This document shows, one piece after another, positions 1 to 34,967 of a stretch of DNA of 64,000 nt. The notes under the pieces are model-generated. The model was not told the DNA's origin, did not search any database, and saw only the letters and a program-made list of their open reading frames with translations. Each line of letters begins with the position of its first letter. Positions within the stretch are counted from its first letter, which is position 1. The translations under genes were made by a program, and so were the position numbers. The stretch is taken from sequence record MT129652.1; one strand, 5' to 3'. This stretch comes from Escherichia phage MN01.

Positions 1-272
1 ATAACCATAACCAACCAGATCTTCTGGCCGCAGTAAAAGAAATCCATGAAGCCATTCGCCGTGCTGAGGAAATTGCAGACAAATATGAGACTCATTTTAA
101 TATATACCCTGCTCGCGGTATGGGCGGTGACTATTATTCTCCTGGCGCCTTGAAAGCTGACCTTGCTCATTGGGAAGAAGATGGTCATCCTGAATGGGCC
201 ATTGTTAATACTCATGACTACACAACCGACCTGGAAAATGGCGGTTGGGTGTCCTCTTCTTCTGAATGTTAA
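1..272 (+). CDS. Partial CDS (3-prime end); small protein ending GWVSSSSEC, first member of a tandem paralog family
   Basis: Open frame from window edge to TAA at 270-272; C-terminal W-x-SS-x-C motif shared with the next three ORFs; AAGGAA SD for next gene follows. Confidence 0.5.
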   Translation, partial: NHNQPDLLAAVKEIHEAIRRAEEIADKYETHFNIYPARGMGGDYYSPGALKADLAHWEEDGHPEWAIVNTHDYTTDLENGGWVSSSSEC

Positions 273-280
273 GGAATTAT

Positions 281-478
281 ATGTCTCGTGAATTAGATTG
301 TGCAATCCGTACTGCCGCAGCAGCTATTGAAAACGTTATCCAGATTTGCAAAGAAGAACGCGAAGAAGCTGATATCTATATCGATGGTGTTCGTGACCTA
401 GACCGACATATTACGCTTTATAATGGTTGTATTACTATTAGTGGTACCTCTTGGGTGTCCTCCTCTTACGAATGCTAA
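281..478 (+). CDS. Hypothetical small protein, W-x-SS-x-C C-terminal family
   Basis: ATG at 281 with AAGGAA 5 nt upstream; ends SWVSSSYEC; the C-terminus-plus-SD DNA block is repeated at 449-490 and 677-718. Confidence 0.55.
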   Translation: MSRELDCAIRTAAAAIENVIQICKEEREEADIYIDGVRDLDRHITLYNGCITISGTSWVSSSYEC

Positions 479-487
479 GGAAATAAA

Positions 488-706
488 ATGACTACTAAAA
501 CTGTTAAAGAAATCGAAGACCAAATCCGTGCACTAATCTGTGAAGGTCTGACTGCGGCGGATGAAACCGGCGAACACTTCCGCGCCGGTGGCGAAGAATA
601 TATTCCAGCTTCTAGCCCGGAATATGACGATTATGAATGGGTTCGTGATGAATATTGTATTCCAGAAGGTGAAGGTTTCTGGTTTAACTCCTCTATGTCT
701 TGCTAA
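488..706 (+). CDS. Hypothetical small acidic protein, W-x-SS-x-C C-terminal family
   Basis: ORF track 72 aa; ends FWFNSSMSC; SD AAGGAAA upstream. Confidence 0.55.
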   Translation: MTTKTVKEIEDQIRALICEGLTAADETGEHFRAGGEEYIPASSPEYDDYEWVRDEYCIPEGEGFWFNSSMSC

Positions 707-715
707 GGTGATAAA

Positions 716-949
716 ATGACTACTACTGTTGAACATGCTGAATTAGAAAAAGCTGCCCTTGAACTGGCCGCGCTGTATAAGAAAGTAAAAGATATGGCTT
801 TTGCTCAAGATTTCGGTGTCGAGCTTGATGATTATGACGGCGAAGTCCGTCTTGAAGACTGGTTGAACAGCTCTTGTTATGGTGAAGAAGCTGGGCGTAC
901 CTTCGTTGCTCGTGCCGATGGTAAAATCTGGTACCCAAGTTCATGTTAA
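716..949 (+). CDS. Hypothetical small protein, W-x-SS-x-C C-terminal family
   Basis: ORF track 77 aa; internal DWLNSSC and terminal IWYPSSC motifs. Confidence 0.55.
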   Translation: MTTTVEHAELEKAALELAALYKKVKDMAFAQDFGVELDDYDGEVRLEDWLNSSCYGEEAGRTFVARADGKIWYPSSC

Positions 950-1170
950 AATTAAAGAAAAGATATATTCGTAAAATAAATGGTCTTCGTGATTACGCCA
1001 AAGGTTGGCCGTTAAGTATTATTATGGCTGATAGACATCCACGTTACAATACCGAGTTGACTTATTACAAAAAGTATGATTCGTATTGTCGGTCTAAAGC
1101 GGGTCGTTTAGATGGTTCCTATGAAGAATATTTCGGTAAAAAACCTACTCGTATTTCGTTAGGAAAATAA
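943..1170 (+). CDS. Hypothetical basic protein
   Basis: 75 aa ORF overlapping previous stop; lysine/arginine rich; no recognisable motif. Confidence 0.3.
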   Translation: MLKLKKRYIRKINGLRDYAKGWPLSIIMADRHPRYNTELTYYKKYDSYCRSKAGRLDGSYEEYFGKKPTRISLGK

Positions 1171-1273
1171 TTTAATCACAAGGATGTGATAGGAGGACTT
1201 ATGCGCAGAAATTTAGTGTACAAGCTCAAAGAAACGTAGTATCATTATCTTGTCAACTAATGAGGAAACCATT

Positions 1274-1504
1274 ATGTGGTATTATGCCCCAATGGCTGAT
1301 GAGCCTGTAAAAATTAGCCGTGCTAAGTTTACAAAGATTTACGGTCTCGTTTATAAAAAGTCTGATTACGGTGTGCGTTTTGAAGATGCACACTGTATCA
1401 ACGACCCTTATAATGAAGACCTCTATGGCAAATTGGTTCCTATCGTTAAGGGGTCCGCCTCTGAGATGATAGATGAATCTAATATATCTGCTGCTGAAAT
1501 TTAA
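1274..1504 (+). CDS. Hypothetical protein
   Basis: Second in-frame ATG of ORF 1250..1504 has GAGGAAA SD; promoter-leader cassette (GTGTACA ... ATCATTATC) directly upstream. Confidence 0.45.
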   Translation: MWYYAPMADEPVKISRAKFTKIYGLVYKKSDYGVRFEDAHCINDPYNEDLYGKLVPIVKGSASEMIDESNISAAEI

Positions 1505-1523
1505 GTTATCTGAGGAAAATATT

Positions 1524-2483
1524 ATGATGTTAGTTATTGGTTCTCGTGCATTACATAACGCTGGCCTGATTGAAAGTCAGAAAATTGAAAACTCTGATTG
1601 GGACTTCATCGCTGACCAAGGTTCCTGGAACCACTTTAAAGCACGTATGTTCGGTGCTCATGTTCCTGTGGATAACCCTGATGTCCAAGCTTTTAAATGT
1701 ATGTACAATGGCAAAGAAACTTATTTTGAAGCTTATATTGTCCGTGCCCTGACCAACGTACGAGAAATTACTGGTGAGCTTCAAGACGAAGATTTCACCT
1801 CAAGTTATCGTCTCTTGAAATACGCTGAAAATCATATTAAGAAAGACCGTCTTACAGGTTTCTATTGGGCAACTCCTGATATTTGTCTGGCAATTAAACT
1901 GTCTCATCGTTACCTGAAGAACAATCCATTCTTCCTGAAGACCATGAGCCATATTAATTACCTTCGTAATAAGGGTGTTGTTCTTAATGATGAACTGCAG
2001 AAAATCATGCTGCAACGGCAGGCAGAAACACTGTCATACAGCCACCCTAAACTAGACGTGGGCAAGAAAACTTTCTTTAATGATACAATCTATACCCTTG
2101 ACCATGACTCCATCCACGAGGCCGTGGCGCTTGCTGATAAGCCTGCATATAAGTTCTATATGAAGGATGATTCAGAAGTCATGACCTCGCGTGAAAAATT
2201 TGAAGCACTCCCTGATGTTATTAAACTGGCAGGTGTTTATGAAGAAGCATGTGTACTTGCTCTGGAGCGTTCGCAGGTTCCCAATGAGTTTAATATCTCT
2301 CCATCCGTGAGCTTCCATATTGCTCTGGAAAAAGTCTGCACCTCCATTACTTCTGGATGGTTCCGTGAGTATGCCTGGGAACATTACCAGGAAGTGGTTA
2401 ATATGTACAACACCCTGGGTCGCGAAGACTATGTTAAACGTTTCAAGGCTAACCAACATTTAATTCGTCCTTTCACAAAATAA
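1524..2483 (+). CDS. Hypothetical protein (319 aa)
   Basis: Internal ATG at 1524 preceded by GAGGAAAAT SD; long open frame typical of phage coding density. Confidence 0.6.
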   Translation: MMLVIGSRALHNAGLIESQKIENSDWDFIADQGSWNHFKARMFGAHVPVDNPDVQAFKCMYNGKETYFEAYIVRALTNVREITGELQDEDFTSSYRLLKYAENHIKKDRLTGFYWATPDICLAIKLSHRYLKNNPFFLKTMSHINYLRNKGVVLNDELQKIMLQRQAETLSYSHPKLDVGKKTFFNDTIYTLDHDSIHEAVALADKPAYKFYMKDDSEVMTSREKFEALPDVIKLAGVYEEACVLALERSQVPNEFNISPSVSFHIALEKVCTSITSGWFREYAWEHYQEVVNMYNTLGREDYVKRFKANQHLIRPFTK

Positions 2484-2542
2484 GTGTGTACATCCAAGTG
2501 GGACTATGACACAATGGTCCCACAATCAATGAGGAAAATATT

Positions 2543-3229
2543 ATGAACGGTCCAAAAACTTTTAATTCTCAAGCTCATGCAGTAGGCAGTTTCGCTGGTA
2601 AAATTTCTAATGATAAAATCAAAAACGAAACTATGTTCTTTAACAGCTCATTGGCTTTCGCTTTTGACAATGGTGGCCCTATTACTCGTAGCTTTATCAT
2701 GAGTCTGCCGGATGATTGGAACACTGACCAGGTTGTATTTGATTCTCGGGTTCATATGCTTATGCCTGGTTGGTATCCTGCTATCCCAGGTTATCACCAT
2801 GATGATGTACCACGCCCGGATATTCCGGTTGGTCAACACTTTATTACTGCAGGGCAACCTGATTATGATAATCCTCGTTACCATTCTGAACATATTCTTG
2901 GTCTTGTTAACGCTGATGTGTGTCCTACTTATTTTGCAACCGGAACTGCGCAATTTAGTCAGATTCCTGAAGGCGAACTTATCTATCGCCAGTGGCATAA
3001 AGAAGTTCTGGAAAAAATTGAGTCCAATGAATTAACCAAGTGGGATGCTCCTGACCGCACGTTGCTCCAGTTTGATTGGCAGACATGGCATACAGGTTCT
3101 CGCGCAGTAAGTAATGGTTGGCGCTGGTTTGGTCGTGTGTCTCGTAATACTGACCGTGTTAAAAAGATTACAAATGAAATCCGCGTCAATGCTCAAGTAT
3201 ATCTGGAATTCCCTATGGAGGGCTGGTAA
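2543..3229 (+). CDS. Hypothetical protein, possible 2OG-Fe(II) oxygenase/cupin-like
   Basis: 228 aa; His/Asp cluster GYHHDD followed later by WHTGSR...RVSR, resembling an HxD...H...R triad; promoter-leader with inverted repeat upstream. Confidence 0.55.
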   Translation: MNGPKTFNSQAHAVGSFAGKISNDKIKNETMFFNSSLAFAFDNGGPITRSFIMSLPDDWNTDQVVFDSRVHMLMPGWYPAIPGYHHDDVPRPDIPVGQHFITAGQPDYDNPRYHSEHILGLVNADVCPTYFATGTAQFSQIPEGELIYRQWHKEVLEKIESNELTKWDAPDRTLLQFDWQTWHTGSRAVSNGWRWFGRVSRNTDRVKKITNEIRVNAQVYLEFPMEGW

Positions 3230-3816
3230 TGGCCCTTTATGAACCCGGCTGCATGGGTGTTGATGTAAACTTCATCCGCCGGGCAGAAAATACAGGTATA
3301 ATTGTATCAAGAGACGAATTTATGATTACCAAAAAATATTGGGCGAACCTTGATGATGGTGATGAAGGAATCAAGGTGGAAAATGTTGATTGGTCGCGAT
3401 GCAATCGTCATGTGAAAGAGCTTTTAATTAAGGAATATAAAATGGGATACATCATTAATGGGCATCAACCAGAACCGCTCAAAGAACAGACACCCGACCC
3501 ATTAATTTCTTATAGCAAGAAATATGGATTTCGTACCTGGAGTGATGAATTTGATAAGTTGATTTGTTCCAGGTTTTATGCCTGGGCTGGAATCTTATTT
3601 TTACCATTCCTGTGGTTTTTCTTGACAGGCAAAAATGAAGCACCCGTAGCTGTAATGGGCGCGTGCTTTTCTACTGCTCTTGCTGGGCTTATTGCATCAT
3701 TTTTATGGACTATGGTTATTGAAGTACCTTTTCGTATTTCTAAAGTTAAAAAGGTATATGACGATATCACTAAGAAAAATACATTGAACTCCTTTATTGA
3801 GGAATGCCGTAAATGA
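3229..3816 (+). CDS. Hypothetical membrane protein
   Basis: 195 aa; TAATG overlap with upstream stop; C-terminal hydrophobic helices (WAGILFLPFLWFFL, ALAGLIASFLWTMVI). Confidence 0.55.
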   Translation: MALYEPGCMGVDVNFIRRAENTGIIVSRDEFMITKKYWANLDDGDEGIKVENVDWSRCNRHVKELLIKEYKMGYIINGHQPEPLKEQTPDPLISYSKKYGFRTWSDEFDKLICSRFYAWAGILFLPFLWFFLTGKNEAPVAVMGACFSTALAGLIASFLWTMVIEVPFRISKVKKVYDDITKKNTLNSFIEECRK

Positions 3817-4049
3817 GTATTGCAATTTATATTAAATCCGAGTCATGTGATTCTTATCTGTATTCCTATGACACTGGAACACCAGAAGAGAAAATCAAAG
3901 ATGATTTAGAAACTGATTTAGATATGTTCCGCCCGATTTCTGAATACAGAATTCAAACTTCTGATAGTGAATCTCCTTCATTGGAAAACAGACTTGAATT
4001 TTTAATGAGTGATATTTTTAACCAATCATGGAAACGTGACGATGAGTAA
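3813..4049 (+). CDS. Hypothetical acidic protein
   Basis: 78 aa; ATGA start/stop overlap with upstream gene. Confidence 0.45.
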   Translation: MSIAIYIKSESCDSYLYSYDTGTPEEKIKDDLETDLDMFRPISEYRIQTSDSESPSLENRLEFLMSDIFNQSWKRDDE

Positions 4050-4500
4050 GAAAAACAAGGTGAAAGAATTATCTGCTGGCATTATTTTCATGACTGAAGA
4101 TAAAGAGTTATTCATGGGTCGTGTGACTGGTTCTCGTAAACCAGGTATGCCTGCACACAAATGGGACATCCCTAAAGGTCATGTTGAAGCTGGTGAATCC
4201 CCGATTGAAGCGGCTATCCGTGAAACCGAAGAAGAAACCGGGTTTACTCAATACGACCCGGCATTCTTAAAGGACCTGGGCGAATTCCGTTATTCAGATA
4301 ACAAAAATCTTCACCTGTTTTTGTACACGGTTCCGGTCGAGCATGAGCAGTTCAGACATAGTAAATGCTCTGCCTATCATACCTTCCCGGATGGTAGTTC
4401 GATTCCAGAGTTCGATGCATTTGCTCTGATTAAACCAAGTCAATGGCAGTATGTGATGGGCAAATCGATGTACAAGGTACTGACTCAAATTTTCGGATAA
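4042..4500 (+). CDS. nudE: Nudix hydrolase NudE (e.1)
   Basis: Nudix box GHVEAGESPIEAAIRETEEETGF; position immediately upstream of lysozyme as in T4. Confidence 0.8.
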   Translation: MSKKNKVKELSAGIIFMTEDKELFMGRVTGSRKPGMPAHKWDIPKGHVEAGESPIEAAIRETEEETGFTQYDPAFLKDLGEFRYSDNKNLHLFLYTVPVEHEQFRHSKCSAYHTFPDGSSIPEFDAFALIKPSQWQYVMGKSMYKVLTQIFG

Positions 4501-4526: not shown

Positions 4527-5018
4527 ATGAATATATTCGAAATGTTACGCATAGATGAAGGTTGTAAGTTGGATTTGTATAAAGATACTGAAGGCTATTG
4601 GACCATTGGTATCGGGCAACTGATAACTAAGAACCCATCAAAAGATGTTGCTCGTGCCGAGCTCGACAAACTCATGGGTCGCGTCTGTAATGGTCGCATA
4701 ACCCAGCACGAAGCTGAAACATTGTTTAACCGTTCGGTCGAAAAAGCTAAAGCCGGAATCTTGAGACACCCTGTCTTAAAACCTGTTTATGATGTGCTAG
4801 ATGAAGTTCGTCGTTGTGCACTCATTAATATGGTATTCCAGATGGGTGTTGCTGGTGTTGCTGGTTTTCCTAAGGGTATGCGACTTCTGAAGTCTAAATC
4901 ATGGGAAGCAGCTGCTAAGGAACTGGCGGACTCAAGATGGTATAAAGTCCAGACTCCGAACCGAGCCAAACGAGTTATAGAAACGTTCCGTACTGGAACT
5001 TTTAGCGCATACAAATAA
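4527..5018 (+). CDS. e: Endolysin (T4 lysozyme e, muramidase)
   Basis: N-terminus [12 protein letters not shown]...[13 protein letters not shown] and [12 protein letters not shown]...PNRAKRVI closely match T4 lysozyme. Confidence 0.95.
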
Positions 5019-5026
5019 GGTAAAAT

Positions 5027-5329
5027 ATGAAAACGTATAAAGAATTTATCACCGAAGCGCGCGTAAGTGCAGGTAAATTAGAAGCCGCTGTAAATAAAAA
5101 GGCCCATTCATTTCATGATTTACCAGATAAAGACCGTAAGAAACTTGTAAGCCTTTATATTGACAAAGAGCGTATTCTAGCTCTCCCTGGCGCTAACGAA
5201 GGTAAACAGGCCAAGCCTTTGAATTCTGTCGAAAAGAAAATTGATAACTTTGCTTCTAAGTTCGGCATGTCTATGGATGACCTTCAGCAAGCGGCTATCG
5301 AAGCAGCTAAAGCAATTAAAGGTAAATAA
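5027..5329 (+). CDS. Internal head protein (IPIII/IPII-like) with capsid-targeting sequence
   Basis: Starts [11 protein letters not shown], matching the T4 internal-protein CTS MKTYQEFIAE with an I-x-E protease site; 100 aa; adjacent to e as in T4. Confidence 0.7.
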
Positions 5330-5331
5330 CA

Positions 5332-5384
5332 GTTTACTTCCACGATACGTGTGATATAATGTTCTCCTACAAACATAGGAGAAC
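5332..5384 (+). promoter_or_regulatory. Sigma70-type early promoter followed by SD-sequestering hairpin upstream of denV
   Basis: GTTTAC (5332-5337), 17-bp spacer, TATAAT (5355-5360); then GTTCTCCT/AGGAGAAC inverted repeat (5361-5384) containing the SD. Confidence 0.5.
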
Positions 5385-5388
5385 AAAC

Positions 5389-5805
5389 ATGACTCGCATT
5401 AATTTGACCCTGGTATCTGAACTTGCTGACCAACATCTTATGGCCGAATATCGTGAACTTCCTCGCGTGTTTGGCGCTGTTCGTAAGCATGTGCAAAATG
5501 GTAAAAAGGTTTCTGACTTTAAAATCCCATCATCTTTTCTTTTAGGGACTGGTCATGTCACCTTCTTTTATGATAAGCTTTTGTTCCTTAAAAACCGACA
5601 TCAAGAACTTATTGCGGAATGTTTAAAGCGAGGGTTTAACATAAAAGATATTTCTACCCAAGACTTAACTGATATTCCTGATGAATGGAAGAATGATTAT
5701 CAACCATCAATCTGGTCAATTGAAATCAGTCAAGCTAGGCTGAATGAGAAAATTTCTCAAAAGCCCGCTTGGTACAAATACTATGGGAAAGCTGTGTACG
5801 CTTAA
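5389..5805 (+). CDS. denV: Endonuclease V (pyrimidine-dimer DNA glycosylase)
   Basis: [35 protein letters not shown]... near-identical to T4 endonuclease V; 138 aa. Confidence 0.92.
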
Positions 5806-7137: not shown

Positions 7138-7344
7138 ATTGACTATTGAAGGTTCTGAAGAAGCTCTGAAGATGTTTGTTGACTGGTTCCACGAACAGGG
7201 CGAACAAGGCTTTATGGAATGTTGGGACGGCGGCCAATGGAATGGTAAAGAAATTGTTTACCCAACTACGTATATCTCCGTGCAAGGTTTGACTGAAGGC
7301 CTTCGTTTGGTAGAATACGATATCGCAACTGGCGAGGAAGTGAA

Positions 7345-7348
<4 letters not shown>
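7130..7348 (+). CDS. Hypothetical acidic protein
   Basis: Internal ATG at 7130 after GGAAAAAAT; 72 aa. Confidence 0.45.
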
Positions 7349-7928
<580 letters not shown>

Positions 7929-34398: not shown

Positions 34399-34967
34399 GT
34401 CTCTTTGATGATGACGTTCAATTAAACGAACATGAGGTTGCGTGGAAATCACGCGACTTTAACAAAATTCAGGAATTGTCCGATTCATACAAAGAGAAAG
34501 CAGAAAATGAATTGTTCGCGATTCTTAATGACATAACCGTTAGCAAAAAACCACGGAACCTGATTCAATCGGAAAACTACAATAAATTCTGGTTGGAAAA
34601 CGCATTGAGTCAACATGTCGATTGCATTATGCAGGTGAATGTGATGAACTTAATCGGTTCCGGGTTAACAGACCAACAGCATTATAATTATTTGCTGCAT
34701 GCAGTTCCACAAGGCAAGCGTTATGGCAAATGGGCAAAGGCTGAGCCGGATGTGGTCAACGTCCAGCTTGTGTTAAAGCTTTTAATGAAATATTATACAA
34801 TTAATGCAGATGATGCTTTGATGTATATGGAAACATTGAAAGTCAAAGGTAGTCTTAAAGATGTTTTGAAAAAGACAAAAGGTCTGGTAACGGATGAATT
34901 CTTAAAGACCGTTACCAGTAATGTGAAAGAACAAAAAGAAATTAAAAAACAAATATTGGAATGGTAA
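34389..34967 (+). CDS. 62: Clamp loader small subunit gp62
   Basis: QLNEHEVAW...KRYGKWAK...GLVTDEFLK...VKEQK matches T4 gp62; overlaps the gp44 stop. Confidence 0.9.
   Translation: MAVSLFDDDVQLNEHEVAWKSRDFNKIQELSDSYKEKAENELFAILNDITVSKKPRNLIQSENYNKFWLENALSQHVDCIMQVNVMNLIGSGLTDQQHYNYLLHAVPQGKRYGKWAKAEPDVVNVQLVLKLLMKYYTINADDALMYMETLKVKGSLKDVLKKTKGLVTDEFLKTVTSNVKEQKEIKKQILEW

Follow-up and report, generated by a model that had tools for sequence, protein, structure and literature searches.

The window analysed here, that is the whole stretch of 64,000 nucleotides (nt) from Escherichia phage MN01 (sequence record MT129652.1), begins with a tandem array of four small open reading frames (ORFs), all of which carry a C-terminal W-x-x-S-S-x(0-2)-C motif at the chain end. 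The array is followed by a single gene encoding a protein with the domains DUF7277 and DUF7275 (1524-2483, + strand), and the linkage of the small-protein family to this gene is the strongest clue obtained. The coliphage from which the window derives is T4-like and, by its sequence, assigned to the Dhakavirus/Gaprivervirus group. Over the full length of bases 1-3300, identity to the phages TH55, UPEC07 and fPSFA is 92-94%, and 265 phage records match this region. In annotated relatives, the region is flanked by a tRNA cluster with e.3/e.4-like genes and by e.2/nudE/e lysozyme. Gene direction throughout the region is that of the + strand of the window.

ORF1 (1-272, + strand) is cut by the window edge and comprises the C-terminal 89 codons of a 93 amino acid (aa) member of the main subfamily ending in GGWVSSSSEC-stop; the first four codons are missing, and the full-length orthologue (MMNDNHNQP...GGWVSSSSEC) is present in the relatives L001, L002 (UPEC07) and L004. 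ORF2 (281-478, + strand; 65 aa, MSRELDC...TSWVSSSYEC) represents a short subfamily which has only the tail in common with the other members. Its start at 281 agrees with the Shine-Dalgarno (SD) sequence AAGGA at 271-275 and with the orthologues. ORF3 (488-706, + strand; 72 aa, ending in GFWFNSSMSC) belongs to the main subfamily again, and ORF4 (716-949, + strand; 77 aa) to a double-motif subfamily, the internal motif being DWLNSSCYGE and the terminal one KIWYPSSC. The internal W-x-x-S-S-C copy, which characterizes this subfamily (DW.SSCYGE), is located at 860-877 (+ strand; DWLNSSC in ORF4), and D48, W49, S52, C54, G56 and E57 are invariant among the ORF4-type proteins. Each of the four genes has an SD and an ATG. 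Coordinates and translations agree with the four consecutive small ORFs and the endings described in an earlier note on this DNA. The number of four applies to the window, whereas the array has five members in UPEC07, IME08 and VR7, where a further protein of 96 aa ending in GAWVSSSxMC is encoded directly to the left of the position of the window start.

All four array ORFs are protein-coding genes under purifying selection, since the ratio of non-synonymous to synonymous substitution rates (dN/dS) is 0.04-0.39 against IME08, VR7 and UPEC07 (ORF1, 0.07-0.33; ORF2, 0.04-0.19; ORF3, 0.21-0.39; ORF4, 0.07-0.22). ORF3 has the highest dN/dS of the array and an aa identity of just 67-78% to its orthologues. 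It is a mosaic in which both ends are kept and the centre differs (...HFRAGGEEYIPASSPEYDDYEW... in the window versus ...IFNLHAADRFQRYIPASSEEYEEYDW... in L002 4488-4718 and L004 3799-4026), a pattern which suggests that a segment was replaced through recombination. With all six frames of the window considered, W-x(1-2)-SS-x(0-3)-C-stop is found five times, and four of these occurrences are the array ORFs. The fifth (34753-34776, ...RMWSTSSLC-stop) has no match to the hidden Markov model (HMM) of the family and was taken as chance. No further family members were detected in the window with the family HMM and a looser end-motif.

ORF1, ORF3 and ORF4 match phrog_899 (E 2.8e-19, 5.5e-10 and 5.9e-9, respectively), as does the fifth member, and ORF2 matches phrog_4882 (E 1.6e-36); PHROGs v4 lists both as catalogue families without function. 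Scans of the small array proteins against Pfam, NCBIfam and PADLOC gave no match, a sequence profile search of the PDB gave no informative match, and a literature search on phrog_899 and the RB69 ORF names found nothing. The family, which the earlier note had not recognised either, is catalogued yet undescribed, and its fold, signature and linkage were matched to nothing known. When 34 close relatives were aligned, common features were seen along the whole length, from an N-terminal helix through ADxxGxxF, a G..Y.P loop and a central W to the tail. The full-length features preceding the tail are present in ORF1, ORF3 and ORF4, and ORF3 matches the family HMM with E 3e-14. The three proteins are full-length homologues within one large, phage-restricted family of small, very acidic alpha/beta proteins, and the four ORFs of the window (five in intact relatives) are its tandem paralogues. 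The ORF4 subfamily aligns to the main family with a probability of 96.3% across 60 columns (hhalign), while the ORF2 subfamily does so (95.8%) in the last 14 residues only. Hence, the tail appears to act as a portable module. The view that the proteins are unrelated outside the tail is therefore retained for ORF2 and was given up for the other three.

The extent of the family was determined by an exhaustive HMMER profile search of 1.84 billion representatives, using clusters at 50% identity. It yielded 123 family clusters, nearly all of 67-136 aa, and the match extends to the last residue. The terminus is exactly W-x-x-S-S-x-x-C in 110 of the 123 cluster representatives, and a loose form of the motif is kept in 120, with the tail consensus G-G-W-[VIL]-S-S-S-x-x-C. 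The chain stops at the Cys in 114 clusters and one residue later in seven; this terminal Cys is the sole Cys in 70/123. The representatives are strongly acidic (median net charge -8). When 100 diverse members were aligned, the W, both S and the terminal C of the tail were invariant, and the A of IAD and the Y of YYP were conserved to more than 90%. Three conserved patches, IAD, YGMGGTYYP and GxWxSSSxxC, thus lie within a fold of about 85 aa. The earlier note had held that the tail goes beyond chance, and on this conservation the tail is clearly non-random and functional. That the proteins form a real family with a functional tail is considered highly probable at the least.

An AlphaFold2 model of a family member reached a pLDDT (predicted local distance difference test) of 90.8. 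In the model, the last beta-strand contains the W, and the chain ends in a short turn made up of SSxxC. No PDB structure resembling the model was found, and in BFVD, a collection of predicted viral protein structures, the matches were uncharacterised family members only. According to the model, the tail would be part of the folded domain and no free appendage.

The gene at 1524-2483 encodes 319 aa, matches DUF7277 and DUF7275 (Pfam E about 1e-76 to 9.5e-76 and 4.2e-26) and belongs to phrog_2141. All 80 relatives have an N-terminus of the form hhhGSxA-(9-25)-DxDhh, with a conserved E later in the chain; G6, S7, D25 and D27 are invariant, and E69 is conserved to more than 90%. By eye, this N-terminus would fit the pattern of a pol-beta-type nucleotidyltransferase, an unproven match to be used as a lead only. 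Some records of Acinetobacter phages label the protein 'putative nucleotidyltransferase'. In the C-terminal DUF7275 domain, numerous basic and His/Asp positions are invariant and one Cys is nearly so. Residues of about 99-141 gave weak HEPN-type matches (RNase L KEN domain, E 0.13; CARF_HEPN in PADLOC, E 0.018). An identity of DUF7275 as HEPN is not supported; the invariant R148 has no conserved His after it as in R-x(4-6)-H, and the matches are weak. The gene was found in 731 phage records, in only two contigs of metagenome-assembled genomes (MAGs) among 185,579 species genomes, and as three weak plasmid matches. On this distribution, it is regarded as a phage-only gene. A literature search on phrog_2141, DUF7275 and DUF7277 found nothing.

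In two distant metagenomic phage contigs (L006 and L007), a family member is encoded directly upstream of a DUF7277-DUF7275 gene of about 300 aa. For the linkage analysis, 84 loci were used, namely 80 viral contigs fetched via the partner protein (39-99% identity; 8-390 kb) and four phage records. In these loci, the family HMM detected 162 members upstream of the DUF7275 gene on the same strand, one downstream and none on the opposite strand, with gaps of -13 to 1622 nt between member and DUF7275 gene. Detection by HMM and end-motif together gave 250 members, all on the + strand and in arrays of 1-6. In the window, all members are located within 3 kb upstream of the single DUF7275 gene. The linkage is also present in E. 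coli phage ESCO13 (Phapecoctavirus) and in Pseudomonas phage COT4 (Otagovirus), whose complete genome of 98 kb has three members, all within 2.8 kb upstream of its single DUF7275 gene. As a control, the neighbouring window ORFs 943-1170, 1274-1504 and 2543-3229 were found in just 6, 12 and 21 of the 84 loci. The family is, therefore, genomically coupled to one DUF7277-DUF7275 gene, on the same strand and almost always upstream of it, and this coupling is seen in large virulent phages from several groups which are unrelated to each other and infect Gram-negative hosts. In Stenotrophomonas phage IME-SM1 (L098 5050-5743), family-like members, one of them ending in ...PLWMPSSQEGC, are situated downstream of the DUF7275 gene instead. 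Adjacency thus appears to have outlasted a rearrangement there. One family-like copy in this phage looks disrupted or mis-framed. In phage T4, 58 kb were examined (1-50 kb and 65.5-73.5 kb), and neither a family gene nor a DUF7275 gene was found there.

Linkage of the module to tRNA or RNA-repair genes is weak and inconsistent. tRNA genes are found within 5 kb of the DUF7275 gene in 13/60 loci and an RNA ligase or Thg1 is nearby in some, whereas in COT4 the tRNA and RNA-repair genes are about 65 kb away from the module. In L006/L007, a Thg1-like gene is located directly downstream of the DUF7275 gene, and genes for PrkA/DUF444/SpoVR, PhoH, ThyA, DHFR (dihydrofolate reductase) and Acb1 are nearby.

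The reading we favour, and to which we give even chances, is that the DUF7277-DUF7275 enzyme-like protein has the array proteins as its partners or substrates and that both form one two-part phage module. The array and the DUF7277-DUF7275 protein would work together, with the invariant tail as the common handle through which the enzyme-like partner recognises every paralogue. The partner might also modify the tail chemically. As candidate sites, the Ser-Ser hydroxyls and the terminal Cys, whose carboxylate is free, come into question, and possibly also the Tyr conserved in the G..Y.P loop. Nucleotidylylation would be a possible chemistry because the N-terminus of the partner resembles a nucleotidyltransferase. 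The divergent bodies of the paralogues could then address different targets in early infection, in host take-over or counter-defence. A functional partnership of the family with the DUF7275 protein is, in our view, rather probable, and a covalent modification of the tail by this protein is doubtful. In its furthest form, the proposal amounts to an undescribed phage protein-modification system: a nucleotidyltransferase-like DUF7277-DUF7275 enzyme would recognise the tail G-x-W-x-S-S-S-x-x-C-COOH, modify it covalently and thereby arm or regulate paralogous acidic effectors early in infection, and a different small-protein family would take the place of the array proteins in other lineages, fused to the enzyme in one case. 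This full version is put forward as a speculative suggestion.

Several results weigh against this reading. Among 36 members of the partner family, no nucleotidyltransferase family of Pfam was matched at E up to 10, and PDB sequence searches with the partner returned no nucleotidyltransferase. In these searches and in PADLOC, with nucleotidyltransferase, HD and HEPN identities considered, the two weak HEPN-type matches were the only ones. With hhalign, the probability was 0.1% against E. coli GlnD and at most 0.4% in comparisons with GlnD, Cca and KNTase. A single-sequence AlphaFold model of the partner had a pLDDT of 36.6, too low to judge the fold. Protein modifiers of the nucleotidyltransferase fold are known to act on Tyr, not on Ser or Cys. 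Since the tail is predicted within the fold, it may be a structural or ligand-binding element rather than a docking handle. Linkage alone can be explained by co-regulation or a common pathway, so that contact and modification are only what we infer from it. The loci are phylogenetically non-independent, and DUF7275 is too conserved for clustering them into lineages. About 5-10 of the 84 DUF7275 loci have no family member, and more distant DUF7275 homologues in Streptomyces, Gordonia, Vibrio K408, Alteromonas and DSS3_VP1 phages occur without the family. Downstream of the distant DUF7275 genes, another small-protein family is found, most members of which end in ...EVKPVQKTITxY (associated genes: L091 4630-5322, L092 4872-5800, L095 4614-4979, L096 3812-4963 and L097 4953-5348). 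The phages of Streptomyces and Gordonia have two tandem copies of it; in PT11-V22, a phage of Alteromonas, it forms the C-terminal part of a fusion with the DUF7275 protein (383 aa). From this other family in the distant homologues, a tendency of DUF7275 proteins to act together with small partners is apparent, in indirect support of the idea of a module.

Among the rival explanations, the one which survives best is that the array encodes autonomous small binders, which could either soak up a metal or small molecule as sponges or inhibit host proteins as acidic mimics. A binding site would then be formed by the aspartate of IAD together with the tail and the Gly-rich YG(M)GG.Y.P loop, and the DUF7275 gene would be a co-regulated neighbour only or an independent step of the same counter-defence island. 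This is a minority possibility to be taken seriously. The placement of three conserved patches in one fold of about 85 aa, with the tail belonging to the predicted fold, suits a binding site; by its median charge, the family is strongly acidic, as known sponge and mimic proteins of phages are. The two motif copies of the ORF4 type, one of which is internal, suit a binding unit better than a strictly terminal handle, and in L006 an Acb1 gene is located a few kb away. Autonomous binders would leave unexplained, however, why unrelated phage groups have retained the family next to DUF7275 despite the turnover of other neighbours and why ORF2-type proteins keep the tail alone, and no structural similarity to any solved sponge or mimic was detected.

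A toxin-antitoxin-like or regulatory arrangement is improbable. Here, the DUF7277-DUF7275 protein would be a potentially toxic nucleotidyltransferase, acting for instance on host tRNA or other RNA, and the acidic proteins encoded upstream would inhibit or regulate it via the tail. The order of small upstream genes followed by a nucleotidyltransferase-like gene resembles AbiE and MenAT modules, and the genes share one strand, often with overlapping or adjoining ends (gaps from -13 nt). The tRNA genes within 5 kb in 13 of the 60 loci, with RNA ligase or Thg1 near some, would fit an RNA target, but this proximity is inconsistent, as the distance in COT4 illustrates. A number of up to 5-6 different paralogues per enzyme does not resemble any antitoxin, bacterial genomes lack the module apart from the partner in the two MAG contigs, and PADLOC gave only the weak HEPN-type match.

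Still less probable is the explanation preferred in the earlier note, in which the tail is a targeting or processing tag on otherwise unrelated cargo, for virion packaging, export or cleavage. It accounts for the ORF2-type proteins, which are common to the others in the 14-residue tail only, and for the requirement that the chain end at the Cys. The T4 internal proteins, divergent small proteins with a common terminal signal encoded in the same genome region, are a precedent, although the T4 capsid-targeting signal is N-terminal. Against a tag, full-length homology links three of the four ORFs, the model places the tail in a strand and turn of the fold, and the acidic proteins have no signal peptide or membrane segment and look cytoplasmic. 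Nothing pointing to virion targeting or proteolytic processing was found. By pattern match only, the window, UPEC07 and IME08 have no late promoter motif (TATAAATA) within the array or close to it, and a middle-promoter-like match, likewise a pattern match only, is located 85 nt upstream of the array in IME08; the timing of expression is only hinted at by these sequences. A precursor of a ribosomally synthesised and post-translationally modified peptide, or an AviCys-type ring, was also considered and rejected; the neighbouring ORFs contain no maturase domain, such as radical SAM, LanM/LanD or YcaO, and the protein is modelled as a compact fold.

Finally, chance resemblance or mis-called ORFs can be regarded as refuted, since the looser end-motif was found in 208 of 3361 + strand ORFs and in none of the 3945 opposite-strand control ORFs of the 84 loci, the array genes are under purifying selection, and 123 diverse clusters have the same ending.

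The junctions between the array genes share a 38-nt repeat with 61-79% identity. Junction 1 (254-291, + strand) contains the tail codons of ORF1, the TAA within the SD (TAAGGAA) and the ATG of ORF2. Junction 2 (460-497, + strand) has the corresponding elements of ORF2 and ORF3 with the same TAAGGAA, and junction 3 (688-725, + strand) those of ORF3 and ORF4 with TAAGGTG. The earlier note had described this repeat at each junction, which applies to these three and not to the fourth (946-949), where the cassette is absent and the ATG of the next ORF overlaps TGT-TAA. On the + strand of the window, the pattern TAAGG[ATG]-N3-9-ATG was counted 20 times, and 17 of these copies are not part of the array. 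Hence, the cassette's non-coding half is ordinary stop/SD coupling, and the cassette as a whole consists of conserved tail codons plus a T4-type TAAGGA stop/SD overlap. The spacers from stop/SD to ATG are 9-12 nt, and no promoter, stem-loop or terminator was found in the junctions.

The comparison with related phages, which the earlier note had suggested with regard to array expansion, gave copy numbers of 1 to 6 among the 84 loci. The subfamily order varies as well, with 0-0-2-0-1 in Dhakavirus/Gaprivervirus versus 0-0-1-0-2 in Klebsiella and Enterobacter phages. The relative L012 is without exactly the ORF2-type unit. Its sequence corresponds to junction 1, the left endpoint of the deletion, up to TAAGGAA and to junction 2, the right endpoint, thereafter, which places the crossover within 7 nt of identity (TAAGGAA). 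These sequence comparisons show an array reshaped by gain, loss and reordering of units via crossovers in the repeated junction.

Two small ORFs are located between the array and the DUF7275 gene, 943-1170 (75 aa, basic, phrog_7065) and 1274-1504 (76 aa, phrog_3723). Both are probably outside the module because they are kept in close relatives only. At 1217-1245, the gap between them (1171-1273) has a sigma-70-like match (TGTACA-17-TATCAT), and it further contains the short inverted repeat ATCACA-AGGA-TGTGAT. Folding of the intergenic region 1165-1275 compared with shuffles gave no significant structure (z 0.03). From its sequence, the gap may be a weak element of the promoter-early stem-loop (PeSL) kind. 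In the UPEC07 record (MW250787), the small ORFs 3817-4272, 4728-4961, 5286-5516 and 7243-7830 are named 'tail completion protein', 'major capsid protein' and 'portal vertex protein'; such structural-protein names are clearly spurious for these ORFs. In the same record, the first annotated coding sequence begins at an upstream position whose frame context is wrong, and it overlaps the gene of the fifth member.

Large virulent phages have hundreds of early genes without assigned function, and many of those recently solved are factors for counter-defence or host take-over. For the family described here, there is a sharp experimental handle in the form of an invariant chain-terminating signature of eight residues, a confident fold without solved relative and arrays of diverged paralogues. 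The partner adds a second handle, being single, tightly linked, phage-only, composed of two Pfam DUFs and present in more than 700 phage genomes. In this way, a testable two-component hypothesis is obtained from 'hypothetical proteins' of the Dhakavirus, Gaprivervirus, Mosigvirus, Phapecoctavirus and Otagovirus phages covered here and of T4-like phages which infect other Gram-negative hosts; several of these groups have members isolated with phage therapy in mind. The deletion of one unit in L012 is a clean example of how conserved coding ends and an SD can drive array plasticity in the hyperplastic regions of T4-type phages. Should the proteins be small binders only, the family definition would be useful and of ordinary interest.

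Database annotations tie the ORFs of the window to RB69 ORF136c/137c/139c, JS98 ORF126c-129c and VR7 ORF138c-142c. These ORFs, like phrog_899 and phrog_4882, are catalogue entries without recorded function, motif description or partner. The array resembles the genes for the T4 internal proteins IPI, IPII and IPIII in that divergent small proteins with a short common terminal motif are encoded in a plastic region near gene e; ipII and ipIII are near this gene. The capsid-targeting signal of the T4 internal proteins is N-terminal and is cleaved by the prohead protease, whereas the array motif is C-terminal and within the predicted fold, the N-termini differ, and most members are full-length homologues.

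In hyperplastic regions of T4-type phages, PeSL cassettes, which combine a sigma-70-like early promoter with a stem-loop, shuffle modules (PMC2839356, PMC4122927). The array junctions are similar in being short repeats in a hyperplastic region at which crossovers add or remove single ORFs, with a removal seen in L012. They differ in being composed of coding sequence and an SD, with 7 nt of identity instead of about 100 nt. With 9-12 nt and neither promoter nor terminator, the junctions were rejected as PeSL cassettes.

Size, acidity, phage restriction and the place among early accessory genes are as in Tad2, Acb2 and Ocr-type mimics. There is no similarity in sequence or structure to any solved structure, and the families of Tad2, Acb2 and Ocr-type proteins are neither defined by a C-terminal Cys nor tied to DUF7275.

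An identity with MNT-HEPN, AbiE or MenAT modules is not supported; the partner is nearly absent from bacteria, and there are 1-6 small genes per enzyme. No homology to GlnD-PII (Tyr uridylylation) or MntA-HepT (Tyr poly-AMPylation) is detectable, and the array proteins are neither PII nor HEPN proteins. The array further differs from both systems by its several partners per enzyme and its restriction to phages, and a modification of its proteins is a hypothesis. The analogy lies in the arrangement, with a GS...DxD enzyme-like gene beside small partners, and in the invariant hydroxyls which the array proteins carry in the SS of the tail and the Y of the Gly-rich loop.

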